A stretch of DNA of 64,000 bases from an uncultured Chitinophagales bacterium (GCA_964492065.1 CAZBHH010000010.1:14512-78511); one strand, 5' to 3'. Counted from the stretch's first letter, positions 11,644 to 57,766 are shown. Translations and numbers: made by a program. The notes: generated from the letters alone by a model not told the origin.

Positions 11644-11645
11644 AG

Positions 11646-13633: not shown

Positions 13634-13636
13634 GCG

Positions 13637-14629: not shown

Positions 14630-14650
14630 AATTTAAAATTCAATTTACGT

Positions 14651-17762: not shown

Positions 17763-17765
17763 TGA

Positions 17766-19148: not shown

Positions 19149-19164
19149 TTTGCCGATACGTTTT

Positions 19165-20235: not shown

Positions 20236-20240
20236 ATCTC

Positions 20241-21704
20241 TTAAAACTGAAAGTAAATAAAAGCGGCCTTATTCACCATGGCAAACCAACCGATTAACAA
20301 TAACATTCCCAAATAAAAACTCCAGCGTATTAACAACGGTTTGGAAACAATTCTCTCTTCTATTGTCTGGTCGCCCACTAAATACATTTTAAAATCCATC
20401 ACGAGCAAAAATGCGATAAATATCCAGCTCAAAGCAAACTGCACAATACTGTCGCTACCCTCTAAACTGTTGTGAATAAGGGCATGCGTGGTATTGGGCA
20501 CCGTGAATATACTTTGGATAATGACAAACGATTCGGATACATTTCTTGAACAAAAGAATATATCCGGAATACTCGTCAGGTTAAATACCCAAAACATGGT
20601 TAAAAATGAAGTAAGCCATTTTAGATTCGGCCCAAGATTGAGTTTCAAATTAGGCATAAACTTGTCCGTCGTTCGCCGCAAACTCAATAAAATGCCATGC
20701 GTCACGCCAAATAACACGAATGTCCAGTTGGCGCCATGCCATAAGCCCATCAATGCGAAAGTCAACATGGTGTTATACATCAACCTCCGGTAATTGACAC
20801 GGCTGCCTCCGAGTGGGAAGTACAGGTAATCCCGAATCCAGAACGACAATGTAATGTGCCATCGCTGCCAAAACTCTCGTACTGTTTTTGAGAAATAGGG
20901 TGTCTTAAAGTTATCGGTAAGATTATAACCCATAATTCTCGCCGAACCGATAGCGATATCGCAATAACCCGAAAAATCACAATATACCTGGAAGGCGAAC
21001 ATCCAGGTGGCGAGAACAACGGCAAAGCCGCCGTGTTCACCGGGATTTTGATACACTTCCTGCACAAAAATAGAGAGCCGGTCGGCCACAACGACCTTCT
21101 TAAAGAACCCCCACAGAATTCTGATCAACCCTTCCTTAGCCCGCAGATAATTAAAATCGAATTTTTTCTTCAGTTGGGGCATAAGGTCATTACTGCGTTC
21201 GATAGGTCCGGCTACCAACTGCGGCCAGAATGAAACAAACAATGCGAAATAACCAAAGTGTTGTTCCGCTTTGGCGGTTCCGCGGTATATATCTATGGAG
21301 TAACTTAAAGTTTGAAATGTATAAAACGAAATACCTACAGGCAGGAATAACCGGAATTCCGGCACATTATAAAATATATTGAACTGGTCGAATACCGCTC
21401 TTGCCGAATCATTAAAGAAGTTAAAATATTTAAACAGCAACAAAAGGCCCAGGTTGGAAAAGAGACTTATCAGCATGTACGGCCTTCGCTGTTGCTTTGT
21501 CTCGCACTGGTTCATCTTGAGACCGGTAAAATAGTCTATGGATGTGGAGACGACGATTAAAAATGCATATTCCGGTTTCCAGCACATATAGAAATAATAG
21601 CTGGCCAACAGGGTAAATAACCAACGCCATCTGAAAGGTGTGGCAAAGTACAAGCCGACAACTATCGGCAGAAACAGTAAAAAATGAAAAGAATTAAAAA
21701 TCAT
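20241..21704 (-). CDS. MBOAT-family membrane-bound O-acyltransferase (AlgI/DltB-like)
   Basis: 487 aa, polytopic. Conserved His region FWQRWHITLSFWIRDYLYFPLGGSR and a second His (GLWHGANW), typical of AlgI/DltB. Confidence 0.88.
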   Translation of the reverse strand: MIFNSFHFLLFLPIVVGLYFATPFRWRWLFTLLASYYFYMCWKPEYAFLIVVSTSIDYFTGLKMNQCETKQQRRPYMLISLFSNLGLLLLFKYFNFFNDSARAVFDQFNIFYNVPEFRLFLPVGISFYTFQTLSYSIDIYRGTAKAEQHFGYFALFVSFWPQLVAGPIERSNDLMPQLKKKFDFNYLRAKEGLIRILWGFFKKVVVADRLSIFVQEVYQNPGEHGGFAVVLATWMFAFQVYCDFSGYCDIAIGSARIMGYNLTDNFKTPYFSKTVREFWQRWHITLSFWIRDYLYFPLGGSRVNYRRLMYNTMLTFALMGLWHGANWTFVLFGVTHGILLSLRRTTDKFMPNLKLNLGPNLKWLTSFLTMFWVFNLTSIPDIFFCSRNVSESFVIIQSIFTVPNTTHALIHNSLEGSDSIVQFALSWIFIAFLLVMDFKMYLVGDQTIEERIVSKPLLIRWSFYLGMLLLIGWFAMVNKAAFIYFQF

Positions 21705-21730
21705 ACCCGCCTAATCTCTCTTTAATTTTC

Positions 21731-22873
21731 TCAGGGATTACCATCTTTGGTGCCCGTCTCAGAAATTTCTTTAGATTTATTTTGATATTCCGCAATTAAC
21801 AGTTGCTTTTGTTCCGCTTCTGCTATTGAGTCTTTGTAATACTTTCGTGCGGATAGTATTCCAATACTCAGAAAAGTACCCAGGATAATTCCAAGTATCA
21901 GGAACAACATTTTTTGTTCCTTTTCCTTAATGGTCGAAATGTCTCCGCTATCTACTACAGATATCAGCGGTGTTTTATTCCGCATATCGAATTTTGCCAA
22001 TTCAAGTTGCGTGTACACTGTGCTGTATTCCAGGGTAAGTATTTCAATATCACGCAAAAGGCGGCCCTGGTTTAGCAATCCGGCGGCTTTAACGGTAAAT
22101 GCCGATTGATCCTGAGTCCTGGCCAATGCATCTTCTTTCGCCTGCATCATTAAACGGATTGAATCGGCACGGTCCTGAATTAAGGATACGGTGCTGATTT
22201 CGTTATCTATCTGTGAGAAAATATAAAATTCGGACGCATTACTCGCGAGGTTATCGGCCATAATGCGGGAAAAGTCTCTGTTAAGCGAAGAAAATTCCAA
22301 TTGATTTAAACCTACTTCTTCATTAAAACTAATGGAGAGATCAGCATCTAAAATCTCATCGTAAACCACACTCATTACGCTGTCCTCGTAAACTGTCAGT
22401 GCATTGATATCGCCATGAATTATTCTAAAATCCTTTATTTTTTTCTTTTTAGCCCATTTGGGATACATCTCAATGTAAAAATTCAGCATATAATCCACCC
22501 GGGGTGGTTGCCCTTTTAACTGTATGGTATCTTTTAGCAATAGCGTTTGTTTAATTACCCGCCGCGACTGCACTAACCCGAGGAAATACTCATTCGTAAA
22601 TTCCGATCCGGTGGAAATACCAATTCCAAAAGAACTCGCCAGCGATGCAAGCGACGAGGTGGAAGAACCCTCCACTCCTTTTACCGAGAAATCCGAATGG
22701 GCTATGTAATGCTCAGGGCGCCATTCAATATAATATCGCAGCAGATATCCGGTAACAACAGCGCCAATTAAAATTACCCACCATTTTCTCAACAGGTACT
22801 TCCTGTATTCACCCATCTTTTTAAACAGGTCGCCGATATTTATTTCATCGTTATATGGGCGGTCGTATTGCAT
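21731..22873 (-). CDS. Wzz-like chain-length determinant (polysaccharide co-polymerase) without a kinase domain
   Basis: 380 aa with a two-TM topology (WWVILIGAVVTGYLL near the N-terminus, LFLILGIILGTFLSIGIL near the C-terminus) flanking a coiled-coil-prone periplasmic region. No Walker A motif. Confidence 0.65.
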   Translation of the reverse strand: MQYDRPYNDEINIGDLFKKMGEYRKYLLRKWWVILIGAVVTGYLLRYYIEWRPEHYIAHSDFSVKGVEGSSTSSLASLASSFGIGISTGSEFTNEYFLGLVQSRRVIKQTLLLKDTIQLKGQPPRVDYMLNFYIEMYPKWAKKKKIKDFRIIHGDINALTVYEDSVMSVVYDEILDADLSISFNEEVGLNQLEFSSLNRDFSRIMADNLASNASEFYIFSQIDNEISTVSLIQDRADSIRLMMQAKEDALARTQDQSAFTVKAAGLLNQGRLLRDIEILTLEYSTVYTQLELAKFDMRNKTPLISVVDSGDISTIKEKEQKMLFLILGIILGTFLSIGILSARKYYKDSIAEAEQKQLLIAEYQNKSKEISETGTKDGNP

Positions 22874-22895
22874 ATCAGTAATTAAAGTCTAATTA

Positions 22896-25337
22896 TTATC
22901 TCTTTGAGTTCTGAACCAGGATAAAAATGGTTGCAAACGTTAACACCGATGCACTCATAGTCGTAGCAAACATATTCCAGTCGAATGGTTCTTTTGGAAC
23001 CTCGGGTTCTTCTTCCACTTTCTTTGGCTTGTACGGTACTACCACTTCCGAGCCTTTCACTTTCACCTTGGGATAGAAGTGGAATACCCACAGGAAATTA
23101 TGCGTACGCTTAACCAACCCGTTGGGTTGAACCACATAGGTACGGCTGCGCCGTGCATCATCGCTAAAATTGCGACCGTATTTTTTAACATAGCGCTTTG
23201 CCGATTTCGAACCGTCAAACGGAACGTACACTTCCATTTTTAAAGTATCCTCAAACGGGAAGTCTATTGCACCGCTCAAGGCGACAAGTTCGCCCAGGCG
23301 AGGGACGTTGATGACGTCGCCTTCCTTTAAAATATAATTGTATTTTGAATTGGGATTTTTTACCGCCTTATCGAGGAACAACATGGTCAGGTTGCCGTTG
23401 CCGCGTTTAATTGTCGCACCTTCGGGATAGGCGTATTCAGTGAAACCTCCGGCTCTGACAATCACTTCGGCCAAAGTTTCGGTTTTTGACAGCAGGGTAT
23501 ATACACCCGGATATACCACCTCGCCTTCCAGTGTAATATTCTTCTGAAATTCAAATTCGGGAATGGTTCTGACGAAAACCATATCATAAGGCTGTAATAC
23601 AAAATTCTCCGAAGCGTCTGCTATTTCAAGCGATTTGTTCACATCAATGGTTTCGATTACCACCCGGGTAGGCTCATTGATATTCTTAGCCTCATTAAAA
23701 TTCAGGATACGGGCAATTTCAATTTTGCTGTTGGCAGCATCCACATTTAATCCGCCGGCATAATAGAGCAGATCTTTCAATTTCATGGATTCGTAATAGG
23801 GGAAATCCCCGGGAGTCTTTACCGCTCCTTCAATCTTCACGGTAAAAGTCTGGCGGAATTTTTCCTTGGTAAACACTTCGACCTGGTCGAATTTTGTCAA
23901 CTCAAAATTGAAAGGGGATTTAGGGTTTTTTAATACTTCCTGTAAATTGAATGGAATATAAACCGAATTCAATTTCTCATCTTTCCTGATGAGATATGCC
24001 TTATTCAGATAGGCTTCGTATTTCACCCCTTGTGCTTTTTCAATCAGGTTGGAAATGCGCAGGCCATCACTTAACTCATAGGTGCCGGGATATTTTACAG
24101 CGCCGATAATTGTTACAACATTTTCAACTGTTTCGGGAATTTTGACAAAGGTTATTTTATCGCCGTTAAGCAATATGAAGTCGCTGCCGGAGGCTTTTAT
24201 ACTGTCGTAATTAATATCTACGACAACATTTTCATTATTGATATACCTGCTGATCGTAACAATATTCGTATAGGCGGTCGATTTTAATCCGCCGGCATAG
24301 AACAATAATTTTTCGAGGTTTTCACCTTCTATTAATTCATATTTAAATGGGCGGTTCACTTCGCCGTTAACTTCTACAACACGGCCGATAGGCGGCACTA
24401 CGATATAGTCGTTATCCTGCAGGTAGGTGTCGTCGGAATAGCCGGGATTTGTTAAGAACTGATACACATCCAGGGTCTTAACCACCTGGTTGTTTCTCTT
24501 TACCTGGATATTTCTGATAGAGCCGATATCATTGGGCCCGCCGGCGGCTACCAATGCATTGAACGGCGTATTAATAGAAGCGATATTATACGAACCGGGT
24601 GAAGTCACTTCACCGACTATATTTACTTTTATCGTTTTGGAATAAGTGAGTGATACATCAAAATTTGCGCCGCTCAGATTGATATACGTTCCGAATTTTT
24701 GTTTTAATAACTGTTTGGTTGCCGCATACGTCAATCCCTGTAAATAGATTCTGCCAATGCCAAATGGATTAATATATCCATCGTCGCTCACCGTGAAATT
24801 TTCATTATAACTGGAGACGCCTCCCCAAACGGAAACGGAAATCTGATCGCCTGCACCCATAATATAATTATTGCTGGGCTTGGAGTTGGGGGCTCTTTCA
24901 TATAGTGAAATAGTGGAATTTCTAAAAATGCCCTGGCCATAAATGGCTGCGGCCACATTGGGAGTCTCGTTTGCCTGGGAATCCGGCGATACCGAATCTG
25001 CTTTTGGAACGGTGTCCAGCAATTGTTCGGCGGCGGCGGCAATATTCTGTTGCTGCACATCGCCAAGCATCTCAATGGCGGTAGAGCTTGTACCCGAACC
25101 GGATTCGCCTAATGCGGAAAGTATGGCTGAAACTTCCGAATCGCTAAAGCCCATGGATTTCAACGAACTCTCAGAAACCATCGACGGACTGACAGCCGCA
25201 GGTGATACCCCCGCCGGCGTACCCGAGCCCTGACCGAATGGATCGGTATTTATCAAGTTTGTGTTCGCCTGTCCGAAAATGTTGTTTGAAAATGCCAGAG
25301 TTAAGATCAAAAGCGCAAACGAAGAAAATTTCTTCAT
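22896..25337 (-). CDS. Wza-like polysaccharide export protein with multiple SLBB domains
   Basis: 813 aa with a signal peptide, a Poly_export-like motif (YIMGAGDQISVSVWG) and several SLBB-like repeats (G.V..PG.Y....). A C-terminal hydrophobic helix (MFATTMSASVLTFATIFILV) is analogous to the Wza outer-membrane helix. Confidence 0.8.
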   Translation of the reverse strand: MKKFSSFALLILTLAFSNNIFGQANTNLINTDPFGQGSGTPAGVSPAAVSPSMVSESSLKSMGFSDSEVSAILSALGESGSGTSSTAIEMLGDVQQQNIAAAAEQLLDTVPKADSVSPDSQANETPNVAAAIYGQGIFRNSTISLYERAPNSKPSNNYIMGAGDQISVSVWGGVSSYNENFTVSDDGYINPFGIGRIYLQGLTYAATKQLLKQKFGTYINLSGANFDVSLTYSKTIKVNIVGEVTSPGSYNIASINTPFNALVAAGGPNDIGSIRNIQVKRNNQVVKTLDVYQFLTNPGYSDDTYLQDNDYIVVPPIGRVVEVNGEVNRPFKYELIEGENLEKLLFYAGGLKSTAYTNIVTISRYINNENVVVDINYDSIKASGSDFILLNGDKITFVKIPETVENVVTIIGAVKYPGTYELSDGLRISNLIEKAQGVKYEAYLNKAYLIRKDEKLNSVYIPFNLQEVLKNPKSPFNFELTKFDQVEVFTKEKFRQTFTVKIEGAVKTPGDFPYYESMKLKDLLYYAGGLNVDAANSKIEIARILNFNEAKNINEPTRVVIETIDVNKSLEIADASENFVLQPYDMVFVRTIPEFEFQKNITLEGEVVYPGVYTLLSKTETLAEVIVRAGGFTEYAYPEGATIKRGNGNLTMLFLDKAVKNPNSKYNYILKEGDVINVPRLGELVALSGAIDFPFEDTLKMEVYVPFDGSKSAKRYVKKYGRNFSDDARRSRTYVVQPNGLVKRTHNFLWVFHFYPKVKVKGSEVVVPYKPKKVEEEPEVPKEPFDWNMFATTMSASVLTFATIFILVQNSKR

Positions 25338-31282: not shown

Positions 31283-31675
31283 TCACAGCCCAGCTCTGAT
31301 TTTTTCGGCTATTGCACTGAGTTCGCTATCAGACATCTTCAGTTTCGGCCTGCTGAAATTTATATCTTCAATCGATTGCAGCGGGATGAGATGGATATGT
31401 GCATGCGGCACCTCCAGCCCTACCACAGCCACGCCGATGCGTTGACAGGGAATGGCTTTTTCCAGGGCCAGGGCAATTTTTTTTGCAAAGGGCAACGCTG
31501 CGCTCAGCAATGTATAATCCAAATCAAACAAATAATCAATTTCCTTCTTGGGAACGACCAATGTATGGCCCGGCGCCAATGGCATTATATCCAAAAATGC
31601 ACAGAAATTTTCATCTTCGTCGATCTTATAGCCCGGAATTTCTCCGGCAATTATTCTACTGAAAATACTCGGCAT
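31283..31675 (-). CDS. HIT-family (histidine triad) protein
   Basis: 130 aa with the histidine triad HAHIHLIP and N-terminus IFSRIIAGEIP. Confidence 0.9.
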   Translation of the reverse strand: MPSIFSRIIAGEIPGYKIDEDENFCAFLDIMPLAPGHTLVVPKKEIDYLFDLDYTLLSAALPFAKKIALALEKAIPCQRIGVAVVGLEVPHAHIHLIPLQSIEDINFSRPKLKMSDSELSAIAEKIRAGL

Positions 31676-31677
31676 CT

Positions 31678-32151
31678 TTAAAGAGTTATATCCAATATTT
31701 TGAGTTCGAGTACACCGGCCGGAACGGTAATTGAAACGACATCTCCAACGACATGCCCCAACAGCCCTTTACCAATTGGCGAAGTAACCGAAATTTTATT
31801 TGCTTTCAGATCGGCTTCCTTTTCTGCGACAAGTTTGTATTGAATTTCCTTGTTTAGCTTGGTATTCAGCACTTTGACATTGGTGAGAACAGCCACTTTC
31901 GAAGTATCGATCTTCGACGCATCCATAATACGGGCATTGGCGAGTAATTCATCCAACTTGGCAATTTTTAGTTCCAATAGCCCCTGCGCCTCCTTGGCGG
32001 CATCGTATTCGGCATTCTCCGACAGGTCGCCTTTTTCCCTGGCCTCTTTAATTTGTTTGGTAATCTCTGCCCTGCCTTTCGATTTCAGGTATTGAATCTC
32101 TGCTACCAAATTATCGTAACCCTGTTGTGTTAAATATGTGATATCTACCAT
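31678..32151 (-). CDS. greA: transcription elongation factor GreA
   Basis: 157 aa with an N-terminal coiled coil containing DLSENAEYDAAKE and a C-terminal SPIGKGLLGHVVGD motif. Confidence 0.94.
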   Translation of the reverse strand: MVDITYLTQQGYDNLVAEIQYLKSKGRAEITKQIKEAREKGDLSENAEYDAAKEAQGLLELKIAKLDELLANARIMDASKIDTSKVAVLTNVKVLNTKLNKEIQYKLVAEKEADLKANKISVTSPIGKGLLGHVVGDVVSITVPAGVLELKILDITL

Positions 32152-32171: not shown

Positions 32172-32205
32172 AAAAAAAAGAAACGCCTCCTTGCGGAAAC
32201 GTTTC
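32172..32205 (-). terminator. probable intrinsic terminator ending the TBDR / T9SS-cargo / PorV-like operon
   Basis: The minus strand reads GAAACG-(14 nt containing CC-GCAA-GG)-CGTTTC followed by T8. It has a 6-bp outer stem with an interrupted interior, so it is marginal. Confidence 0.4.
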
Positions 32206-32228
32206 AACAAAAATAAATAAAATAACTA

Positions 32229-33299
32229 CTATATGCTCAATCTGATTCCAAATGAATGCGAACCATCATAAGGATTAGATGACCTGTAGGAATAGCTTAT
32301 TGATAAAATATTAGTCGGTGAATCTGCAAACGATGTTTGGAATGTTACACCCGCAGCCAGCCCGGTATGTGCAGTTGTCCTCTCATCGGTATTGGAAGAA
32401 AGCATTCCATCCTCATACCTGTAACCGGCACGCAACAGGAACATCTCGGTATTTTTCACCTTCAGCCCGTATTCTACGCCAATGCCAAACTGGTCTTTGC
32501 TAAAGGAGTTAGAGATAAAGGAGCCCACGGCAGTCAGCCTGTTGGTTGCTCCGAAATAGAAGTCATAAGATAATCCTATCGACAGCGACGAAGGCAATTC
32601 AAAATATTCAGACGGGAAACCCAGGGTGGCTGCATAACTGCCGTCGGGAACACTTCCCCTGAAGGTCAGACCATCACCGCCGAAACGCATCGGAGTACCG
32701 ATATTTTTCAGGGTAACACCCATCTTCATTTTCTCGGGATGTTCCTCTGTTCCTGTGATATATTGAATACCGACATCGAGGGAGACGCCAAAGGCTTTCA
32801 TATCCGAAATATTTTCGGAAATACCGCGAATGGTAAATCCACCGCTGAGGTAGTCGGCAAACTTTCTGGAATACGATACGGCAAAGTTAGACAGCCTCGG
32901 CCTGAAAGTAGCGCCGGTGCCTTCCGGCGCCGCGGTAGTGGTAACCGGAATGTCTCCGAGATTAAAATTTACAAGCGACAATCCGATGGCGCCTTCACCT
33001 ACTTTTTGTGCCAGTCCAAAGGAGTTGATGCTAATATCTGATCCCACCAGCCATTCGGTCCTGGAAAAAGTCAAATCCGTTCTATTGATAAACGTCAAAC
33101 CGGCAACATTCACATTCATGGACTCCAGGCCTTGAATAGACGCCACGTTTAAGCCATACCATCCGGAACTTTGCGCCCAGGGGTTTATTAATATTTCGGA
33201 GGCCCCTGCCTGTCCTGCCCTATCGGGGTTACCGGCTATAACTGTACCTGCAATCGCAAGCAGCGCTATTAAAATTTTTACTTTTAAAAATCCTCTCAT
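32229..33299 (-). CDS. PorV/PorQ-family-like outer-membrane beta-barrel
   Basis: 356 aa with a signal peptide. The N-terminal motif AGQAGASEILINPWAQSSGWYGLNVASIQGLESMNVNVAGL resembles the G.aGA.fL.i...aR..amGGa.........NPAgL signature. The rest has an alternating beta-strand pattern. Confidence 0.5.
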   Translation of the reverse strand: MRGFLKVKILIALLAIAGTVIAGNPDRAGQAGASEILINPWAQSSGWYGLNVASIQGLESMNVNVAGLTFINRTDLTFSRTEWLVGSDISINSFGLAQKVGEGAIGLSLVNFNLGDIPVTTTAAPEGTGATFRPRLSNFAVSYSRKFADYLSGGFTIRGISENISDMKAFGVSLDVGIQYITGTEEHPEKMKMGVTLKNIGTPMRFGGDGLTFRGSVPDGSYAATLGFPSEYFELPSSLSIGLSYDFYFGATNRLTAVGSFISNSFSKDQFGIGVEYGLKVKNTEMFLLRAGYRYEDGMLSSNTDERTTAHTGLAAGVTFQTSFADSPTNILSISYSYRSSNPYDGSHSFGIRLSI

Positions 33300-33310
33300 T
33301 TATTTCAGTT

Positions 33311-36300
33311 TTAGAAGGTATCAAGATCTATCGGACGCATTGCGCCAAACCACTTAACGGTGCGTTCTCCCAGCGCCCCGGCATCAATATGGATCAGGTA
33401 AACGCCACTGGCAACCATTACACCCTTGGAATTCTTTAAATCCCATTCCAGCGATGTATCCAGGTTGTCTGCCTTGGTGGTCAAAATACCACCTGATGAT
33501 GTTTCACCTGATACGGCCCTCGTATATTTGCGCACGAGGGTGCCGTCCATTGAGAAAATACTTACCGTACAATTGCTCGGCAGATTGGTAATTTTTATCC
33601 GGTAATCTACCGGGCTGGTCTCATAGGAAGAATATGCGTAATACGGATTAGGCACTACGTTTATTAAGTCGAGTGCACTCTCGGCTTTTGCCGTGTTATT
33701 AACCGTTGCAGCCAAATCTGTTGTACTAAATCTATACATCGGGAATCCGGCATTTTCACCGCCGACTACCTTATTGACATACCTGCCGGTTACCCGGATT
33801 TTTACGGTGGTTTCAGTCGGAATCAAGCCATCTGTAAACGATAATAAGGAAGCGCCCGGAGCAAGCATCGGCCGGCCTATCCATACCACATTTTTCCATA
33901 CTTCACGAATTATGGTTGAGGAAGGCGGTGTACCACCCACCCATGAGAGTGAATCCATCCAGGTTTTACATCCGTCATAGGGGATACGGGTAACGTATAT
34001 ATTGTGTTTACCACCTAATACGATATCCAATCCACTATCTCCTACATATTTTTCTGATGGGTTAAACAACATGTCATCGGAGTTACCATCAATATTCACA
34101 AAGGGGTCTTCCCCAAAGAAGATGTTCACCCGCTGACCTGTTTCCACATTAATGGCATATCCCGGGAACCAACTGCGGCCAATTTCACCTGCAACCACAT
34201 TGCCGTACTGATCAATGGAAGGCTTCTGGCGAAGGTCCATCTTATTCTCTCCGTACAGGTTGGTAGATGGCCCCTCTCCGGTATTGACAACTATACACTG
34301 CGACCACTTCGACCGGTCGTTGGTAAGAACGATATCAATACCGTTGAGACTGCTCAATCTCTGTTGCGGCAGTGAAATTGTCAAGCCGATGATCTGGCGC
34401 AATGGCATATACAGAATACCGGAAGATTCATTGTTATAGCGTGTGAGCCCCATCGGCCCGATGGTTCCCGCGACAATTGTTTCATAGACTTCATTATCAT
34501 CCACGCCCAGGATATCGCCCTCATCCAGTCCCGATCTCAACCAGTTGAACAGCGGTGATCCATTCACGTTTGGAATTCCGGACAACCACGGTTTATTGAT
34601 ATCTTCATAAACGACATCCCATCCGATCAAACCGTTATTGGATTCCCATTCAACGCCGGCAACATTCGGGTCAGGGCCCGGGGGATTGACACCGGTAATA
34701 GTAACTGCCAGCCCCCAATCCGGAATAATTTGTTCATTTTTAAAACCAATCGGGAAATCGGATTTAACAGATTGACCCGTTGTCAAATTCGTCATTACCC
34801 ACCAGGTAGAGTCATAATTTAACACATATCCCGCAGGCGCTCCTGCAGCTGCCATCGAAGAATCGTATAATATCACCTGAAAGTCGGCAGCCGGCACTCT
34901 GACAGGGTCATAAACAGCCACATCAATAGGCGCTTTCCGGCCTTTATACACCGGCATAGCTATAGAGCCATTTGCTAAAATTTCATCAACGGAAGCAGAG
35001 GTGAGTTCCAGGAAATTACCGCCGTTTCCAACACCTTCCACCATAGTGATATCCGGACCGTCGCCGTATTGGGCGTTCAGGACTGTTCCACCTGATTGCG
35101 GATCGGGTTTATGCGGGATACCAACATAGAGTTTAATATTATTTCTACCTTCCAGATACGGGCGTTTCTGCGTATTGGGGTCTGTCGGGTCATAGGCTTT
35201 ATACTCATTATAGGCATAGGACACTACTGAGAAATAGTATTTCTTATAATTCACAATTTTAGTTATACCGGATGCAAATGCATCATCGGTAACTCTAAAG
35301 GTGTGGAACACTCCGTCATTATTGCCATCTACTTGCAACACCGGCACATCGGCCCCCAACACGGGATCATAGGTGAAATTCACCAATTTCACCACGTCAT
35401 CTTCCAGGTCGCACTGGAATATCAGGCGTGCTTTGGCCGGATCGTTATATTCAGAGCTTGAAACCTGGCCGTTGGCGAGTTGGTAAATCTTGTACCCCTG
35501 GAAATTATAGGTGGAGTCGGTAATGCTCGGGTCTTCCTCCATAATACTTTGTATAATAGGATCAGCTTCCTCATACGACTCACCTCTATTATTTGAATTT
35601 GGTCCATTCGTTATGGAAATTATCAACTCCTGGTCTAATTCCCTGATAGACATATCCGGTGCATCCGGTCCGCTGATCAATTCAAAATTATTGTCGAACA
35701 GCGCCTGAGCTTTTTGGTCTGCCAATGAAATGGCGTCAAATGTGGTTTGACAGCCCCCGGAAATCGGCGGCCTCACCCAAAGTGCGCCGATAACGATTTC
35801 ATTGGTTGCGCCCGGTTCCAGCCTGAAAGGTCCGGAAGACATGATAAACCTGCGGTCATTCGGCGGATTGCTTTCGGTACATTCGCTCCAACCCAACGGG
35901 TCGCTTGGGTCGCTGGGGAACATAAAGGGAGTTGCCTCTGTTCCGCCGTAGCCGTTTCCACCGGAAGTAAAGGGAGAGCCGTCTTTCCAACTTCCTGACA
36001 GGTAGCCGTAATAATGCGCTGCCACTTCGGGGTTACCAATCGTCGACCAGTCGTTATTGTAGTACAAGAAGGCAGCCATACCCAAACGGATACTGTCAGT
36101 AATGGTACTGCCGTCGTAAATATATTTAATCGGCCCCTGGAAAAAGTCAGTACCGAACAGAGGCGGGTTTTCGCCATAGGCCGCCAAATCGGGCCCGTCG
36201 AGTGCATCGCCATTATAAGTTAGACCTAAGGAAAGCGTCGTATCGCATCCAACCCAGTCGTCGAAAGCATAGCCTAAATCCGAATCCACCCAATATCCCA

Positions 36301-37159
36301 TATAAACAGAGTCCAATGCCGTTGTCGCATAATTGATAACATTATACTTGTAAAAGGTCATATCGTTAATCTCATCGTTGGTACTGAAGGCAAATGCAGT
36401 TGCCTGTATTTCGACACCAATGGCATCGCCACCGGATTCGGTATGGATATTTCCCTTGTCGTTATATACATAAAATATGGCCTGATCTCCGTCCACATCG
36501 GGGTATTCGCCAAAATTCGGCTCATAAACGCCATTGAAATTCAGGTCTACAAACGGCGCTAAAGGCTTGTTGATAACCAAAACATCGGTTGCAGATTTGC
36601 CTTTTGCATAGGCATTTCCAATCGCCGGCCACTCCCAAATCACCCGGTATGTAGATGAGTATGTAAGCGGGCTTGCTTCAGAACCGCCCAAATTGATGAA
36701 ACTGTCAATAAGGCTCGCATTCACCTTCCAGTGTCGGTCATATGCATTACACACCACATCATCCACAGTTCCAAGACTTGTCAATGGGCCCGGCCAAAAG
36801 TCGTTTCCATTTTGCCGATACGTCTGAGCCGCTATTTTTAACTGGCCGCCGGCATCGATACCGCCAATCCAAAGAGCGCCAGCAAAACTGGAACTCACTT
36901 CGATATCGGGCGGATATACTTTGGGTACCACATATTTACCGTTGTTCAAATCCCACCAGAAGTCACCCGCACCCAGGAGCCGTGCACGCACGTTGTTAAT
37001 GTCCAGCTCGATTTGTGATGTGGCGTCATTACAGGCGGCAGAAAGCTTACTGTAGTTTTGAGCTTGTCTTCCCGAAATACCGATATTTTCCTTTGCCTGC
37101 GTGGTAAAGACTACAGTTGCCAGAAAGACAGATGTGAAAATTATTTTCTTGTTCAACAT
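33311..37159 (-). CDS. 1282-aa secreted protein of unknown function with a T9SS C-terminal sorting-domain-like tail
   Basis: It has a signal peptide (FTSVFLATVVFTTQA). The last ~115 aa (VVPNPYYAYSS...CTVSIFSMDGTLVRKY...LEWDLKNSKGVMVASGVYLIHIDAG...VKWF) fit the Por_Secre_tail / FlgD-Ig-like pattern. I recognise no catalytic motif. Confidence 0.7.
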   Translation of the reverse strand: MLNKKIIFTSVFLATVVFTTQAKENIGISGRQAQNYSKLSAACNDATSQIELDINNVRARLLGAGDFWWDLNNGKYVVPKVYPPDIEVSSSFAGALWIGGIDAGGQLKIAAQTYRQNGNDFWPGPLTSLGTVDDVVCNAYDRHWKVNASLIDSFINLGGSEASPLTYSSTYRVIWEWPAIGNAYAKGKSATDVLVINKPLAPFVDLNFNGVYEPNFGEYPDVDGDQAIFYVYNDKGNIHTESGGDAIGVEIQATAFAFSTNDEINDMTFYKYNVINYATTALDSVYMGYWVDSDLGYAFDDWVGCDTTLSLGLTYNGDALDGPDLAAYGENPPLFGTDFFQGPIKYIYDGSTITDSIRLGMAAFLYYNNDWSTIGNPEVAAHYYGYLSGSWKDGSPFTSGGNGYGGTEATPFMFPSDPSDPLGWSECTESNPPNDRRFIMSSGPFRLEPGATNEIVIGALWVRPPISGGCQTTFDAISLADQKAQALFDNNFELISGPDAPDMSIRELDQELIISITNGPNSNNRGESYEEADPIIQSIMEEDPSITDSTYNFQGYKIYQLANGQVSSSEYNDPAKARLIFQCDLEDDVVKLVNFTYDPVLGADVPVLQVDGNNDGVFHTFRVTDDAFASGITKIVNYKKYYFSVVSYAYNEYKAYDPTDPNTQKRPYLEGRNNIKLYVGIPHKPDPQSGGTVLNAQYGDGPDITMVEGVGNGGNFLELTSASVDEILANGSIAMPVYKGRKAPIDVAVYDPVRVPAADFQVILYDSSMAAAGAPAGYVLNYDSTWWVMTNLTTGQSVKSDFPIGFKNEQIIPDWGLAVTITGVNPPGPDPNVAGVEWESNNGLIGWDVVYEDINKPWLSGIPNVNGSPLFNWLRSGLDEGDILGVDDNEVYETIVAGTIGPMGLTRYNNESSGILYMPLRQIIGLTISLPQQRLSSLNGIDIVLTNDRSKWSQCIVVNTGEGPSTNLYGENKMDLRQKPSIDQYGNVVAGEIGRSWFPGYAINVETGQRVNIFFGEDPFVNIDGNSDDMLFNPSEKYVGDSGLDIVLGGKHNIYVTRIPYDGCKTWMDSLSWVGGTPPSSTIIREVWKNVVWIGRPMLAPGASLLSFTDGLIPTETTVKIRVTGRYVNKVVGGENAGFPMYRFSTTDLAATVNNTAKAESALDLINVVPNPYYAYSSYETSPVDYRIKITNLPSNCTVSIFSMDGTLVRKYTRAVSGETSSGGILTTKADNLDTSLEWDLKNSKGVMVASGVYLIHIDAGALGERTVKWFGAMRPIDLDTF

Positions 37160-37183
37160 ATTTTAAGCGCTTTATACTAATTT

Positions 37184-40100
37184 TTAAAAATCGAAAGACA
37201 ATCCGAGCCGTATTCTTCTTGGAATGCTATAATTATCCGGGTTTTGCATCCGGGCTGTATAGAGGTCAATAAACGATGCGGCGTTCACCTGTCCCTCAAT
37301 GGCTTCGGCTCCATAGGATGAACTTATAAATCCATCGTCCATCGGGTTGCCTGTGTAGCCATACACTGCCATAATATTCTTTGTATCAAACAGGTTCTGC
37401 ACCCATAAATATACATTCATATTTACCATGCGCTCTTTTGATTCTTTACCTACGGCAAAGCCCCATGATTTATCAAGTTTGATATCTGTGCGGAAGTGCC
37501 AGGGCAACCTCGAACCGTTAACAGTACCGTCCAGGTTTGTATTTCTGTCGTCGCCCAATTGCGTAGCAGTCGGATTGCTCTGACGGGTGTAAGGCTCACC
37601 GGAACGTGCGTTAAATGTGAGGTTTAATCCCACGTCATTCAACCAGGCGGGTTGTCCGCCCATCGGATCATCAAAGCGGTAATCCATTACCACTTTAATA
37701 TTATGGCGTGAATCGTAACTCAACGGAATAATTGCCCTGAGGTTCGGCTGTCCTGATCCGATGAGGTTCAACTGTGAAGTTGCGCTGGAACCCGTTCCAT
37801 CGGCAAACTGCAGCGTATAGCTCGTTGACAATTTCAGATTTCTCGTTCTCTTGGCAATGTCATAGGCAATGGATAGCCCTTTTACGGTTCCAAAATCTAT
37901 ATTGCCAAATGTGGTGTACTGTACCGGAATTGCATAGGGTACGCTGATAATCTGAACCATGTCCCTGAGTTCGCGGTAGAAGGCGGATATCTTAAGAACT
38001 GATGCTTCATTCAATTGTTGCTGGAAACCTATTTGATAATCGATAGTCTTCTCCGGTTTCAAATCCGGGTTATCGAATACGTTATTCACATTCTCCTGGA
38101 AGAAATAATAATCATAGGCCGTAGCGGATGTTCCGGTAGGAGGCCTTTGAGTCAAAATATCGTAGTGTGCAAAGAATAATGCCTCCCTGTTTATTTCTTT
38201 GGAAATCGGGAAGGAGAACGCAATTCTTGGCATTACCGATATCTGCGGTTTATAATCTTCAAAGGAAGAGTTCGGATCAAAGTTCTCGCTCTTTATATTA
38301 ATGGTAGGATCGACGATATACGGTGTAATCGTACCGGTAGAAGAGCTCAAGGCTATCGTTCTCGGGTCGGTAATTTCCTCGCCGTTAGCATTGTACCAGG
38401 TATCCTCATCGCGGTAACCCAGAATTTGTGTCGGGTTGTTATAATCGTCCACATATACTGCAAAATCATCGCCGATATTTCCGGGATGTGCTCCGTTCGG
38501 ATTCAGAGCGGGATCCACTTCATTGGTAGAATAAATATCGTATAATGAATATTTATCCTTTAATACGCTGCGATTGGCATCATACCTGTCAACCCTGACA
38601 CCAACCCGGAACACGATATCGTTAAAGTTGAAGCGGTCCTGGATGTAACCGGCGGTATATACAGGGCGGAAAGCGCCGATGGGGCGGGTTTTCTCTCCAT
38701 CTTCATTGGTGGCTGACCAAAAGTCATTGAAAGAAGGTTGTGTAGTTAACCTGTTGCCCAAAATATCGTAGCCGTTGTAAAATACAAACGCATTACCGTT
38801 ATTCAGCAACTCATCGGCACTAAACAGGTCTAATGAAAACACATCTACCGGCAGATTGTCGATATTGATATAATCCAGTTCCCCCACATTATATCCCAGT
38901 TCATTTAAACGCTCCCTCAATTGCTGGTCGAAATAGGTTTGATCCTCGGCGACAAACAACCTGTCGTAGCGAATGGTATCAAATTCGCCGAACGTCAATC
39001 CGGATGCCAGATACTCCTCGTAGGTATATTCCTGACCGTCGATTACGAGAATCGGGTTATCGGTATCCAAATTGGTAATATGGCGATTGGCTAATTGCCG
39101 TGAAAGCGTCCACAGACCGATGGGAACTACCTGGTAAACACGCTGCACCTGTTGCTGGAATTCAAAACCGAATTCGATAGAGTGCTTGGATACATTTGCC
39201 GATTTTTTCCGGCTCTTCAGATCCAGGGCGGCGTTGAAATTCAGTCCGTATTGATCGTTGTTTTGTTTGTAATAGTTGCTATAAGGTACGCCGGCATTCC
39301 ACCAAATTCCATACACGTTGGTACCCTGAACAAAAGCGTCTCCGTTCAGTAAACCACCCCCTAACTGAATCTCGTAAATATTTCTCGGTGCAAATAAACT
39401 CTCTTCGTAATACTGAGTGGTATAGGCGCTCAGTTCGGGGTTTAAAGTACCGGGAGTGTATTCGACGAGTGTATCTAAATAACCGGCCAGCAGCCAGCCA
39501 TTCAATCCCGTTGCCGCATCAGTCCCATAGCCGTACACCGGCGCTCTCAAAGTGTTAAACTCGCCGATATACCCGTAGTTAAACGGATTCATACCGTGCG
39601 TTTCATCCTGGAGCGTACCGTAATACTTGGTATAATCGATTTGAATATTGTAAAACGCATTTCCAACGATACCTTCATCTTCGCCATCTTCACCTTTCTT
39701 TTCAGGGAAGCGCTGGGTAAACCTCAAAAATCCGCGGTAGGTATTCTGATCTGAAATGGGATTATTTTCCGAATTAAACAGCGCAAACGTCCGCACGTAA
39801 TTATGTGCATTAAATCCCCGCCAGGTCAATCCGAGTTGGAGATTAGTGGTTTTGCTCAATTTATAATCGAAGCGGGTTGTCAGTGAGATACCACCTGAGT
39901 TTACATTTTGTTTGTAGGCGATATCTTCCATATCGTCGAATGTAATAAACTCTGAGCTCTTATTAAATCCGGCGCCGGAAACTGCCGGGCGAAGCGGATT
40001 TGCAATGAGTTCCTCCATTACATCATCTTTAATTTTATAATTGCCGATTGCCGAAGGGTCTCCGTCTCTCTCCCATTCGCCCTCTGCGGCAATGAAGAAG

Positions 40101-40906
40101 CCAAATTTGGCATATTCGTTATCCTGGCCTTTATTCTCCCGGATAAGCGGGCCGGTAAGGAATACGGAGGCGAGATTGTAATTATAGGGGTCCAGCAGGG
40201 TTGATGTGGCCACCTCGGCACTTCCATTGTAAACCTTGGAAGGTCCGCGGGTTGTAATTGATATAAATCCACCGGTAGCATCGCCATATTTCGGGTCAAC
40301 ACCTCCGGTGATTACCTGTAATTGCTCAATGGCATCCTGAGGCAGTTTCAAGGAACCGGTTACCCGCACACCGTCAATCACATATTCGGTAGCGTCGCCA
40401 CGTGAGCCTTTAATACTCAATCCGCCGCCTTCATCGCTCTGGTAAACCCCCTCCTTGGTAGCGGCAATAGAGGTTACGTTCCTTGTGGCTATTTTCTCGA
40501 TATCTTCTTTCGTTACCACACCTCCGGTGGATGTATTACCCTTATCCACCAATGGCGCTTCATAAACGATAACAATTTCTTCCAGGGTGGTATTTTCGCT
40601 CAGGGTAATATCTTTCAGGAAGACGATACCCGAAGAAACAACCACATTGGTAACCCGCTGTTTATTGCCCTGATAGGAGGCTTCTACCTCATAGGTTCCC
40701 GGGCTGAGGCCGGGTACTGAATAATGGCCGTCAAAATCCGTGACCGCACCGGTTTCCAAAACGCCATTTTTATAAACAGCTACGTTTGCAAATGGAATCC
40801 CCTCTCCCTTAGGGTCAATTATCTTTCCCTGTATCTCACCGTTTTGAGCAAAGGCCGTGGTTGCCGCAAATACCAGTAGAGTAAATACGTATAGGAATTT
40901 ATTCAT
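37184..40906 (-). CDS. 1240-aa SusC-like TonB-dependent outer-membrane transporter (CarboxypepD_reg + plug + oversized barrel)
   Basis: It has a signal peptide and a CarboxypepD_reg-like domain (GKIIDPKGEGIPFANVAVYKNG...TDFDGHYSVPGLSPGTYEV). The plug motif is GVYQSDEGGGLSIKGSRGDATEYVIDGVRV, and the C-terminus RIRLGLSFDF ends in Phe. Confidence 0.8.
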   Translation of the reverse strand: MNKFLYVFTLLVFAATTAFAQNGEIQGKIIDPKGEGIPFANVAVYKNGVLETGAVTDFDGHYSVPGLSPGTYEVEASYQGNKQRVTNVVVSSGIVFLKDITLSENTTLEEIVIVYEAPLVDKGNTSTGGVVTKEDIEKIATRNVTSIAATKEGVYQSDEGGGLSIKGSRGDATEYVIDGVRVTGSLKLPQDAIEQLQVITGGVDPKYGDATGGFISITTRGPSKVYNGSAEVATSTLLDPYNYNLASVFLTGPLIRENKGQDNEYAKFGFFIAAEGEWERDGDPSAIGNYKIKDDVMEELIANPLRPAVSGAGFNKSSEFITFDDMEDIAYKQNVNSGGISLTTRFDYKLSKTTNLQLGLTWRGFNAHNYVRTFALFNSENNPISDQNTYRGFLRFTQRFPEKKGEDGEDEGIVGNAFYNIQIDYTKYYGTLQDETHGMNPFNYGYIGEFNTLRAPVYGYGTDAATGLNGWLLAGYLDTLVEYTPGTLNPELSAYTTQYYEESLFAPRNIYEIQLGGGLLNGDAFVQGTNVYGIWWNAGVPYSNYYKQNNDQYGLNFNAALDLKSRKKSANVSKHSIEFGFEFQQQVQRVYQVVPIGLWTLSRQLANRHITNLDTDNPILVIDGQEYTYEEYLASGLTFGEFDTIRYDRLFVAEDQTYFDQQLRERLNELGYNVGELDYINIDNLPVDVFSLDLFSADELLNNGNAFVFYNGYDILGNRLTTQPSFNDFWSATNEDGEKTRPIGAFRPVYTAGYIQDRFNFNDIVFRVGVRVDRYDANRSVLKDKYSLYDIYSTNEVDPALNPNGAHPGNIGDDFAVYVDDYNNPTQILGYRDEDTWYNANGEEITDPRTIALSSSTGTITPYIVDPTINIKSENFDPNSSFEDYKPQISVMPRIAFSFPISKEINREALFFAHYDILTQRPPTGTSATAYDYYFFQENVNNVFDNPDLKPEKTIDYQIGFQQQLNEASVLKISAFYRELRDMVQIISVPYAIPVQYTTFGNIDFGTVKGLSIAYDIAKRTRNLKLSTSYTLQFADGTGSSATSQLNLIGSGQPNLRAIIPLSYDSRHNIKVVMDYRFDDPMGGQPAWLNDVGLNLTFNARSGEPYTRQSNPTATQLGDDRNTNLDGTVNGSRLPWHFRTDIKLDKSWGFAVGKESKERMVNMNVYLWVQNLFDTKNIMAVYGYTGNPMDDGFISSSYGAEAIEGQVNAASFIDLYTARMQNPDNYSIPRRIRLGLSFDF

Positions 40907-40962
40907 ACACAGAAGTTTTAAAAATTGTTAAGATGCCGTAAAAATATATAAATATTCGTAAA

Positions 40963-40970
40963 CAAAAATA
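40963..40970 (-). promoter_or_regulatory. candidate -7 box (TATTTTTG on minus strand) upstream of the TBDR operon
   Basis: Plus-strand caaaaata is the reverse complement of TATTTTTG, 56 nt upstream of the TBDR ATG. A possible -33 TTG (plus-strand caa at 40994-40996) has a 23-nt spacer. Confidence 0.4.
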
Positions 40971-49106: not shown

Positions 49107-51680
49107 TTATTTAATGTTGTATGCAACAATACTATTACCCTTGAATGAAACCACCAGGCTGCCGGATTCAATCACTATAAACCTGCCTGAGGCTTCCGCC
49201 GGGAAACCATTGACCGGAGTTCCGTCTGAGTGTATTAAAAACAATGTATGCAATTGCGAATCGGCAATACCGATGTAGGTATTTTTGTTACTCGTGTAAG
49301 TGTAAATTGAAGAATTGCCGGAAGCATTGACCGGAATCTGCCATAGCGGTTTTTGGGCGGTTGTCTCTGCATAGAGAGTACCGGATGACAGATAGATTAT
49401 ATCCATCGTATCATCGCTTTGCATATCCAATAATGCGGCATCCTGAATATCGCTGCCAACCGGGGTTGATTGCACTTTACCGTCAAGTGTCAATTGTACC
49501 AGATTGAATTGGCTGTCAATGGCTAACAACCGGCCATTGCCGCTGCCCGCATCCGGAATCAGTTCGCTGATGAAACCATTTCCCGCCTTTATTTTATTTA
49601 TTCTGTTTTCACCTTTCCTGTTTTTTATTTGAACAGTTCCGTCTGCATTGGCAAAGAGGATATAGTCTTTCTGATTCTTTTCAATATAAGTAAATGCCTG
49701 CTTAAGTATTGCCCCATTCTTTAACGGGCTCCACCCGGGCAGTGGTTTACCGTCTTTGTAGAACCCATAGATATTGCCATTGCCGCAACCGATAAACATC
49801 CGGTAGTCTCCCCGGCCGTCATAATCGATAAGCGACAACGGCGAGGTCACTTCCGTTGTTGCGCTAATCGGGAATCCTTCGACATCCCTTCCCAGCATAT
49901 CCAGCATGTGAATACCATCGGCAGCGGCGAAGGCGATTTGCTTCTTGCCGTTACTATAATAATCCACCGTATAGACTTTATCCGTCATCGGTGCAGCCAT
50001 CGCCCGCTTCCATTCGATATTGCCGTCAGGTGAAATCAGGTAAACCTGCAATGCTGTATCCTGTAAAAAAATATACTCTTTACCGCTTAAGTGATTGAAA
50101 ACGGCATACGGTCCATTGAGCACCGGGTAGTCGATTTGAGTTTTCCATGTGAATCCGCTCTGTTGCTTCGCACCGGGCGCATACAGAATATTACCGCTAA
50201 CGATATGCAACTCTTTTGAAGCGGAAAAGCGCAAGAGCAGCCCATTGTATTTTTGGAACGGGAATTCCGAACCCGCATCCGATGCAAATGTATTTTTAAC
50301 CAGCCCTCCTGAGAAAGCGGGATTTAGATACACACTGTAATTACAATTACTCGCCACCCTTGACTTCAGAATTTCATACGCCGCATCCTGCTTTAAGGTT
50401 TGTTGATTTAAGTAGGCATCTATCACCTGCATCAGTTGATTTATTGAAGGCGCTACTGCAATATATCCCTGTATTAAACAGGCAAATACCGTCTGTTTAC
50501 CGGTGCCGAATCCGGAAACGGACTGCAGTATTTCGGAGTCGGAGATTTTATAAATATCGAAATCACGGTAGTTGGTCGTACTATTTTCCGAAAGAATAGC
50601 AAGTTTGCTCAAAGCCATATCCCGATCAATTACCTGCATAATTAAATACGCCTTATTGCTGAGGGAAGCATCGTAGGGTTGCGAAACGGCATACGTATAA
50701 TGCGTGCCCAGCCAGGGAGCCCAATCTAACGATTCGGCGTTGCCCGCATTTTTATTCTCTCCTAAGATACCGAGCGGCCTGTTTCCCTGAAATGCAAATG
50801 CGGTATTTCCAATTAAAAAATTATCGGCTTCATCAAAATTGTATTCTGCATCCCGGTATTGGGATAATACGGTATTTAATCCGGCAGAACCGGCATATCC
50901 ACTCATTTCAATACCTGTATCCGTGAAATTAAAGCTCAGGGATATCCAGGAAGTAAAACCAGCCAGCCGGCGACAAACATTGTAGTAATCCTGTTTTACA
51001 AAACCGCCTGTATAATAGCCCAATTGCTCCATATTAAAAAATACATTGGGTACAGTATCCTTCAACCCTTTATCATACAGTTTTTTAAACAGCGGAAAGG
51101 TATTCAATCCGGTGGAAGCCTTAACCTGGGAAATAGCGCTTTCGATCAGCACTTCAGACATACTGAACAACAACACCTTTCCCACCATTGCACAACTCAC
51201 CACAACGCCGGGCACACTAAAGGAGTAAACGGTTTCCTTATTACTGTTGTAAGTGTTTACTTCAGCCGCAATGCCTTTATATGACCATTGGAGTTTCTGC
51301 AAACTGAAGCCCTCCGTCTTACATGCAAAAATATAATCCACCTTTCCCGCACCTGCAGTGATGGCAGACACAACTATTTTCCCATGTTCCACCATTTGCA
51401 TCAAGTCCGGGTCTGCCTGTGCGAAGTCCTTCAGCAACTGCGTAGCCGAATCCAGGTTATGAATCAATTGAATGGATTGTAAATCACTCCATTGGGGTGC
51501 GAGAAAGAAATTGCGTTCAATTGCGTTGACATTTTTTGCATCTATCACTAATAATGCATTGGCGGGGATTGCATCAATGGGTTCTAACCGAATACCGCCG
51601 GGTTTAAAAAAGAAATACCAGGCGGCAACTGCTGCTGCCAACACAATTACAATCCATGAGATCCGCCGTTTGTTCAACAT
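49107..51680 (-). CDS. membrane-anchored large periplasmic/surface protein, unknown function (DUF3352-like N-terminal half, FG-GAP/propeller-like C-terminal half)
   Basis: N-terminal anchor ISWIVIVLAAAVAAWYFFF. The C-terminal half has repeated beta-strand blocks and DYDGRGDY-type FG-GAP-like motifs. The start is moved to the ATG at 51680, because the track start at 51698 is TTG and overlaps a candidate -7 box. Confidence 0.7.
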   Translation of the reverse strand: MLNKRRISWIVIVLAAAVAAWYFFFKPGGIRLEPIDAIPANALLVIDAKNVNAIERNFFLAPQWSDLQSIQLIHNLDSATQLLKDFAQADPDLMQMVEHGKIVVSAITAGAGKVDYIFACKTEGFSLQKLQWSYKGIAAEVNTYNSNKETVYSFSVPGVVVSCAMVGKVLLFSMSEVLIESAISQVKASTGLNTFPLFKKLYDKGLKDTVPNVFFNMEQLGYYTGGFVKQDYYNVCRRLAGFTSWISLSFNFTDTGIEMSGYAGSAGLNTVLSQYRDAEYNFDEADNFLIGNTAFAFQGNRPLGILGENKNAGNAESLDWAPWLGTHYTYAVSQPYDASLSNKAYLIMQVIDRDMALSKLAILSENSTTNYRDFDIYKISDSEILQSVSGFGTGKQTVFACLIQGYIAVAPSINQLMQVIDAYLNQQTLKQDAAYEILKSRVASNCNYSVYLNPAFSGGLVKNTFASDAGSEFPFQKYNGLLLRFSASKELHIVSGNILYAPGAKQQSGFTWKTQIDYPVLNGPYAVFNHLSGKEYIFLQDTALQVYLISPDGNIEWKRAMAAPMTDKVYTVDYYSNGKKQIAFAAADGIHMLDMLGRDVEGFPISATTEVTSPLSLIDYDGRGDYRMFIGCGNGNIYGFYKDGKPLPGWSPLKNGAILKQAFTYIEKNQKDYILFANADGTVQIKNRKGENRINKIKAGNGFISELIPDAGSGNGRLLAIDSQFNLVQLTLDGKVQSTPVGSDIQDAALLDMQSDDTMDIIYLSSGTLYAETTAQKPLWQIPVNASGNSSIYTYTSNKNTYIGIADSQLHTLFLIHSDGTPVNGFPAEASGRFIVIESGSLVVSFKGNSIVAYNIK

Positions 51681-51686
51681 GTTGGA

Positions 51687-51704
51687 ATACCTTTGCAAAG
51701 GTAT
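51687..51704. promoter_or_regulatory. 18-bp perfect palindrome ATACCTTTGCAAAGGTAT containing back-to-back TAnnTTTG -7 boxes on both strands
   Basis: Read directly. TACCTTTG is at 51688-51695 on the plus strand, and its mirror is at 51696-51703 on the minus strand. It sits in the divergent region between the 49107-51680 gene and the DUF423 gene. Confidence 0.35.
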
Positions 51705-54812: not shown

Positions 54813-54835
54813 TTCGCTGTTTTCAAATTATCCTA

Positions 54836-55849: not shown

Positions 55850-55860
55850 GTAATCGGTTT

Positions 55861-57744: not shown

Positions 57745-57766
57745 TGTTAAGTGTTTAATATGAATC

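Follow-up and report, generated by a model that had tools for sequence, protein, structure and literature searches.

A conserved gene triad of a TonB-dependent transporter, a predicted type IX secretion substrate and a PorV/PorQ-family barrel in Bacteroidota

Surface-exposed partner proteins are common for the TonB-dependent transporters of Bacteroidota (PMC12578637). PorU and PorZ are type IX secretion system (T9SS) substrates whose unremoved C-terminal domains (CTDs) fasten them to PorV and PorQ (PMC10202324, PMC12365241), and the genes of type-B cargos lie next to those of cognate SprF-like barrels, which set the destination of these cargos (PMC12618676). Two hallmarks of the outer membrane of Bacteroidota, TonB-dependent transporters that have surface partners and T9SS cargo on PorV-family barrels, have so far been described separately. 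In this study we analysed a locus that appears to combine both in one operon. It lies in a 64,000-nt stretch of DNA from an uncultured Chitinophagales bacterium (the window; coordinates count from its first letter) and consists of g1, encoding a TonB-dependent transporter, g2, encoding a large secreted protein with a T9SS-type CTD, and g3, encoding a barrel of the PorV/PorQ family. We found that the triad is real, deeply conserved and uncharacterised. A search of the full-text literature revealed no description or characterisation of the combination, in agreement with the original prediction, made from the DNA sequence alone, which knew of no characterised example. According to the family models, each part is of a known kind, but SusC is excluded for g1, PorZ and PorU are excluded for g2, and PorV, PorQ and PorV2 for g3.

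The pair of g2 and g3 resembles PorZ-PorQ and PorU-PorV of Porphyromonas gingivalis in that a type-A CTD protein is combined with a PorV/PorQ-family barrel, Sec/T9SS export and anchoring being predicted for g2. However, the body of g2 (aa 23-1160) is unlike both PorZ and PorU, g3 stays below the equivalog cut-offs of PorV, PorQ and PorV2, the pair shares its operon with a TonB-dependent transporter, and g2 has an extra tail after the CTD. As in SusC/SusD and BtuB-BtuG, the gene for an N-terminally extended TonB-dependent transporter is directly followed by that of a surface partner, the exposure of g2 being predicted. The locus differs from these systems in that g1 fails the SusC/RagA model, g2 is neither a lipoprotein nor SusD-like and would take the T9SS route rather than that of lipoprotein export, g3 is added as a putative anchor, and no regulator or carbohydrate-active enzymes (CAZymes) are encoded.

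With the type-B cargos that are accompanied by PorP/SprF, with or without a PorE-like protein, in Flavobacterium johnsoniae (PMC12618676), the locus shares the arrangement of a T9SS cargo gene adjoining the gene of its own FadL-like barrel. However, the CTD of g2 is type-A/PorZ-like and not of the CHU_C/TIGR04131 kind, g3 belongs to the PorV/PorQ and not the PorP/SprF family, and instead of the PorE-like protein there is a TonB-dependent transporter. We rejected the triad as a type-B CTD cargo with a PorP/SprF shuttle because the type-B models CHU_C/TIGR04131 matched neither g2 nor its relatives and TIGR03519-type PorP matches were weak (11/29 g3 orthologues). Finally, g1 shares the succession of CarboxypepD_reg, plug and barrel with Oar, a TonB-dependent transporter needed for PopC secretion in Myxococcus xanthus (PMC6434023). 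M. xanthus, however, has no T9SS, whereas a T9SS signal is present on g2 itself, and signs of outward transport were not found at the locus.

The explanation that we consider best, and that we put forward tentatively although it may well be correct, is that g2 is exported by the T9SS, held on g3 by a retained PorZ-type CTD, and cooperates at the cell surface with the TonB-energised g1. The three genes would then form one outer-membrane module. In this module g2 would cross the inner membrane via Sec and be exported by the T9SS through its PorZ-type type-A CTD, which would be kept and would dock non-covalently on g3 as a dedicated barrel, like PorZ on PorQ and PorU on PorV. The β-rich body of g2 would thereby be displayed beside g1, and could serve this TonB-energised transporter as a surface partner for capture or processing, a role held elsewhere by the lipoproteins SusD, surface glycan-binding protein (SGBP) and BtuG. 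We infer that g2 depends on the T9SS, keeps its CTD, binds g3 and cooperates with g1, and that transport is inward; a glycan as the substrate of g1 is a weak guess. The gene structure, domain identities, CTD fold, family memberships and deep synteny were observed. If the proposal is true, g2-g3 would be a third anchor pair beside PorU-PorV and PorZ-PorQ, and PorV-family barrels would be general surface anchors. Moreover, the triad would represent a new class of complex between a transporter and a surface protein, with the T9SS and TonB systems directly linked in function, and would provide an annotation rule for thousands of unnamed proteins.

Products of the three genes

The g2 gene (33311-37159, on the minus strand like all features of the triad) encodes a 1282-aa protein made up of a signal peptide, a β-rich body, a PorZ-type CTD and a tail. 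The CTD (aa ~1165-1272, 33344-33667), a T9SS type-A-like immunoglobulin (Ig) fold, was detected with hidden Markov models (HMMs) and with AlphaFold2/Foldseek, and is nearest to the PorZ CTD. Family matches of the window g2 were confined to aa 1156-1259 (PorZ model, E 8e-7; PorU model, E 7e-3), and its full-length scores were far below the cut-offs, namely 27.9 against 260 for PorZ (NF052228) and 14 against 420 for the PorU sortase (NF033707). Among 27 members of the g2 family, matches were obtained with PorZ in 24, PorU in 10, TIGR04183 in 9 (best E 1e-4) and PF18962 in 1. The AlphaFold2 model of aa 1130-1282 (pLDDT 79.8) contained seven β-strands as assigned by DSSP, as in an Ig-like CTD. When this model was compared with the PDB by Foldseek, PorZ (5M11) was the best match (E 1.2e-5, TMq 0.52, 23% identity), followed by the RemZ/NucA CTDs in SprA-PorV complexes (8GL8_D, 8GLK_D), PorU (6ZA2) and the RgpB CTD (7PQ4). 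Judged from the predicted structure, the C-terminal domain of g2 is a T9SS CTD, as the original prediction had proposed for this 1282-aa protein with a signal peptide.

Both HMMs and structure place the CTD of g2 nearest those of PorZ and PorU, the two known CTDs that are retained and barrel-bound, which supports its reading as an anchor. In addition, the mean pairwise identity of the CTD was 0.62, among the best-conserved regions of the protein, compared with 0.41-0.53 for most of the body. In its degree of conservation the CTD equals the best-conserved core of g2, which is consistent with a domain whose partner is retained. The assignment of g2 itself to PorZ or PorU was rejected, since its scores fell short of the equivalog cut-offs, only the CTD region was aligned and the body was unlike either protein.

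The CTD is followed by a conserved tail of 10 residues, AMRPIDLDTF (aa 1273-1282, 33314-33343). Its last residue is F or Y in 58/70 orthologues, almost all of which fit xxRPxDLxx[FY], and about a dozen loci, Saprospiraceae-labelled ones included, have an alternative tail that is typically xNR[KQ]FDP[ST]GL. We also observed a likeness of the tail to the outer-membrane β-signal.

At its other end, g2 starts with a predicted Sec signal peptide of the signal peptidase I type (aa 1-22, 37094-37159), MLNKKIIFTSVFLATVVFTTQA followed by KEN (…TTQA/KEN), which has no lipobox. The first 35 residues were free of Cys in 52 of 70 family members. By these sequence features g2 is not a lipoprotein. We rejected g2 as a SusD-like protein because its model was mostly β and not helical, no lipobox was present and Pfam gave no match; the β-rich model and the missing lipobox likewise speak against an ordinary SusD- or SGBP-like lipoprotein, one of four outcomes that the original prediction had named as refuting it, none of which we obtained.

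The body of g2 (aa 23-1160, 33680-37093) was modelled by AlphaFold2 as a multi-domain, mostly β structure with a mean pLDDT of 87.7 and a pTM of 0.66. No domain was found by the Pfam scan of the window g2, and among 27 relatives the only Pfam matches were rare C-terminal ones to FlgD_ig and Por_Secre_tail. A PDB sequence search with the g2 profile returned no relative, and no specific NCBIfam model was matched, the NCBIfam matches being limited to the CTD. The structural matches of the body in the PDB were chains of GH15, GH116, GH94 and GH65 (glycoside hydrolase/phosphorylase), with TM ≤ 0.23 at best and the aligned part not reported, which is too weak for assigning a function. Neither PorZ (5M11) nor PorU (6ZA2) was among the 50 PDB matches listed by Foldseek for the body, and the search of BFVD gave weak FN3-type similarity only. 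As modelled, the body is effectively a new combination of folds with no clear homologue.

The 356-aa product of g3 (32229-33299) was recognised as an outer-membrane barrel by the PorV/PorQ family model NF033709 (130.3 bits, cut-off 90). At the same time, it remained below the equivalog cut-offs of PorV (NF033710, 64.6 against 250), PorQ (NF033711, 44.1 against 220) and PorV2 (NF052325, 25 against 325), and this pattern of a matched family model with unreached equivalogs was repeated in 29/29 g3 orthologues. Other models matched these orthologues sparsely: PorP weakly in 11/29 (best E 4.6e-6), and BamG (NF053685) in 1/29 (E 1e-3). The Pfam scan of g3, in which the FadL family was included, gave no match at E ≤ 0.01. 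The protein had been foreseen as PorV/PorQ-like rather than FadL-like, and this was borne out. By its matches to the models, g3 represents a subfamily of its own among the PorV/PorQ-type barrels. We rejected g3 as PorV, PorQ or PorV2 on the grounds of the equivalog cut-offs, and as BamG, a FadL-like subunit of the β-barrel assembly machinery (BAM), on the grounds of the single matching orthologue. The BamG described in two BAM papers (PMC12578637, PMC12611786) is a FadL-like barrel other than g3.

The open reading frame (ORF) of g1 (37184-40906) encodes a TonB-dependent transporter of 1240 aa with an N-terminal extension, as identified by Pfam. The extension is a CarboxypepD_reg domain (aa 25-101, 40604-40834; PF13620, E 6.5e-15, 55.7 bits, cut-off 32.3) and the plug domain occupies aa 130-213 (40268-40519; PF07715, 35.3 bits, cut-off 23.9); both were found in 29/29 relatives. 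A TonB-box-like segment, LEEIVIVYEAPLVD (aa 108-121, 40544-40585), lies between them. In the alignment of 29 relatives the block L-[DE]-E-V-V-V-x-Y-K-V-P-L-I-D was kept at this place, and from its sequence it looks like a TonB box. Barrel models of TonB-dependent receptors matched g1 partially (NF010010, E 8.7e-13), PF00593 was matched by 10/29 relatives, and the protein ends in ...LSFDF, with a terminal Phe in 63/70 orthologues. N-terminal extensions of the CarboxypepD_reg type are common among Bacteroidetes TonB-dependent transporters (PMC6434023). The SusC/RagA model TIGR04056 did not match the window g1 at E ≤ 0.01 and matched just 2/29 orthologues, so that g1 is a TonB-dependent transporter of generic kind, extended at its N-terminus. 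Thus, of the SusC-like character originally ascribed to g1, the CarboxypepD_reg domain, the plug and the C-terminal Phe were found, whereas membership of the SusC/RagA family was rejected, since TIGR04056 was unmatched and no gene for a SusD-like lipoprotein lies directly downstream. PDB sequence searches with g1 and with g3 gave no matches.

Operon structure and conservation of the triad

The operon proposed in the original prediction was found as described with regard to its ORFs (1240, 1282 and 356 aa, all on the minus strand), its intergenic gaps of 24 and 11 nt, and the hairpin with eight T residues at its end. This intrinsic terminator (32172-32205) is formed by a GC-containing stem of 11 bp (32205-32180) with a GCAA loop, followed by T8. 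Its folding energy was -16 kcal/mol (z = -3.8), and folds as good were obtained in 0/200 shuffles. No terminator-like sites were present in the 24- and 11-nt gaps. A hairpin followed by a T-run was found 3' of g3 in 54/69 related loci, and the sequences of the hairpins vary. The tight spacing and the terminator support the reading as an operon, and so do the terminator-like sites of relatives.

The claim of a Bacteroidota -7 promoter box fared less well. The candidate box TATTTTTG (40963-40970) is present 57 nt 5' of the g1 ATG, but the TAnnTTTG motif occurs in the window at the frequency expected by chance (54 observed, 57.6 expected), which leaves TATTTTTG plausible at most, and we dropped the box as statistical evidence for a promoter. 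Among related loci the motif occurred within 150 nt 5' of g1 in 15/57, compared with 2/57 control windows taken from the g2 coding sequence.

The family of g2 is large. A word-indexed search returned >4,895 matches, and the search with the g2 body gave 7,583 clusters at 50% identity (E ≤ 1e-3), 2,673 of them with E ≤ 1e-30. Where these relatives have names, they are called 'hypothetical protein' or 'T9SS type A sorting domain-containing protein'. In a collection with one genome per GTDB species, g2 relatives were encoded in at least 592 stretches, and the counts of synteny given here rest on the 80 best loci of these. The 80 loci carried the labels Chitinophagales, Saprospiraceae, Flavobacteriales (Crocinitomicaceae, Cryomorphaceae, Weeksellaceae) and Bacteroidales (Lentimicrobiaceae); the sole isolate among them, the cultured Membranihabitans marinus (L076), has the triad.

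The order and strand of g1-g2-g3 were kept in 69/80 loci, with gaps mostly <100 nt, so that the triad is co-conserved outside the window, as had been proposed for testing. In the window the triad sits between housekeeping genes: 2-Hacid_dh, ksgA and pdxA lie upstream of it, whereas greA, HIT and ruvC are found downstream. We observed greA directly 3' of the triad and on the same strand in 64/69 loci and the HIT gene in 58/69 (in the window, 31283-32151), and the same arrangement of triad, greA and HIT was present in a closed 4.0-Mb contig (L086). The kept order of the triad and its fixed site before greA/HIT point to old, vertical inheritance. Possibly, although here we are a little more doubtful than about the mechanism proposed above, the locus represents an ancient, vertically inherited machine in which a T9SS-delivered partner on a PorV/PorQ-type barrel replaces the lipoprotein of a TonB-dependent transporter.

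As a separate observation, the gene order triad-greA-HIT is unusually stable between orders of the Bacteroidota.

Extra g2 paralogues accompany a single g1/g3 pair in some loci. A second full-length g2, placed between g3 and greA, forms a g1-g2-g3-g2' tandem in L010 (13481-17524), L050 (13441-17412) and L070 (13444-17373), and in L013 (7995-11972) the second copy is nearby rather than in tandem. Orphan g2 paralogues also exist, and their neighbours are unrelated. Two such orphans (L019, 6621-7604; L055, 6715-7884) adjoin ordinary type-A CTD proteins recognised by TIGR04183, of which one has a choice-of-anchor J domain and the other is Kelch/mutarotase-like, indicating that those lineages also use canonical type-A cargo.

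Support for the proposed mechanism and alternative explanations

That the T9SS is available to g2 is suggested by an operon of type-B CTD, PorP_SprF and PorE-like genes at 52203-60136 (minus strand), which implies that the genome is T9SS-proficient; core gld/spr genes were not seen in the 64-kb window. Orphan cargos can share one shuttle (PMC12618676), and the g2 paralogues that accompany one g1/g3 pair resemble this situation. The correlation of distance matrices was r 0.67-0.80 among g1, g2 and g3 compared with 0.46-0.60 between these genes and greA. These sequence distances lend weak support to co-evolution of the three genes, but greA is short and slowly evolving and thus a poor control, so that the correlations could reflect shared rate variation alone.

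Besides this, several results weigh against the proposal that g2 is anchored on g3 and serves g1. At the level of the family, T9SS models gave matches in 24/27 (PorZ) and 9/27 (TIGR04183) members, but the window g2 itself matched neither TIGR04183 nor PF18962 at E ≤ 0.01. The tail after the CTD was missing from two tandem g2 paralogues (L050, L070), which stop after the last CTD strand (…KWFGALSE). In the modelled body, no binding or catalytic fold could be recognised at the level of the structural matches (TM ≤ 0.23). Moreover, the triad locus contains no regulator, SusD-like gene or CAZyme, for which reason we rejected it as an ordinary polysaccharide utilization locus, and its housekeeping context fits a constitutive role in structure or biogenesis equally well as nutrient uptake.

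Such a context would suit an accessory T9SS or attachment module, a third pair of a CTD protein and a PorV-family barrel that does not serve nutrient uptake. In this case the task of g2 would be to process a surface glycolipid or cargo or to deliver it, and g1 would give a TonB-energised step. The PorZ/PorU-like CTD of g2, the equal distance of g3 from PorV and PorQ and the housekeeping surroundings without a regulator are consistent with this idea, and the stable site upstream of greA in 64/69 loci suggests a core rather than a substrate-specific function. However, we regard the accessory module as unlikely, because the body of g2 is unlike PorZ and PorU (neither among the 50 matches listed, HMM matches CTD-limited), TonB-dependent transporters with a plug are not known among the components of the T9SS, and the triad is not described in the T9SS reviews and interactome papers that we consulted. 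Alternatively, g2 could be an ordinary T9SS cargo whose CTD is cleaved after delivery, with g3 as no more than its private, SprF-like shuttle away from the translocon and g1 merely co-transcribed, outside any complex with the other two. Operons of a cargo and its cognate shuttle are established (PMC12618676), and one of them is present in the window at 52203-60136. TIGR04183 is matched by 9/27 members of the g2 family, and NCBI gives several g2 homologues the name 'T9SS type A sorting domain-containing protein'. Nevertheless, g1 has been kept beside g2 and g3 in 69/80 loci with very short gaps, and the CTD of g2 is unusually conserved and nearest to retained CTDs. In addition, type-A cargos normally use the general PorV and need no private shuttle, so that we find a role of g3 as private shuttle rather improbable.

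The direction of transport could also be the reverse, with g1 acting outward, in the manner of Myxococcus Oar with the protease PopC, to secrete or assemble g2, which g3 would receive at the surface. The architecture of CarboxypepD_reg, plug and barrel is shared by g1 and Oar (PMC6434023), but the same architecture is the commonest among Bacteroidetes TonB-dependent transporters (PMC6434023) and is thus not diagnostic. Since g2 has its own T9SS export signal and T9SS components are present in the genome, we consider an Oar-like function of g1 very improbable.

Other loci in the window

The type-B T9SS module (52203-60136, minus strand) offers a contrast to the triad within the same window. Two of its proteins (789 and 627 aa) have Choice_anch_L and CHU_C domains, the latter a type-B CTD; the others are a PorP_SprF barrel (337 aa) and a PorE-like protein with PD40/OmpA (869 aa). 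It is adjoined by an ORF of 863 aa (857 aa according to the gene caller; 49107-51698, minus strand) for which only weak or faint Pfam matches, to DUF3352 and β-propellers, were obtained. At ~9962-25337, on the minus strand, lie genes of polysaccharide biosynthesis and export, including a Wza-like Poly_export/SLBB protein, an MBOAT protein, a Wzx-like flippase, a weak Wzy_C match, a glycosyltransferase and five sulfotransferase-family genes. From this gene set, the product may be a sulfated exopolysaccharide.

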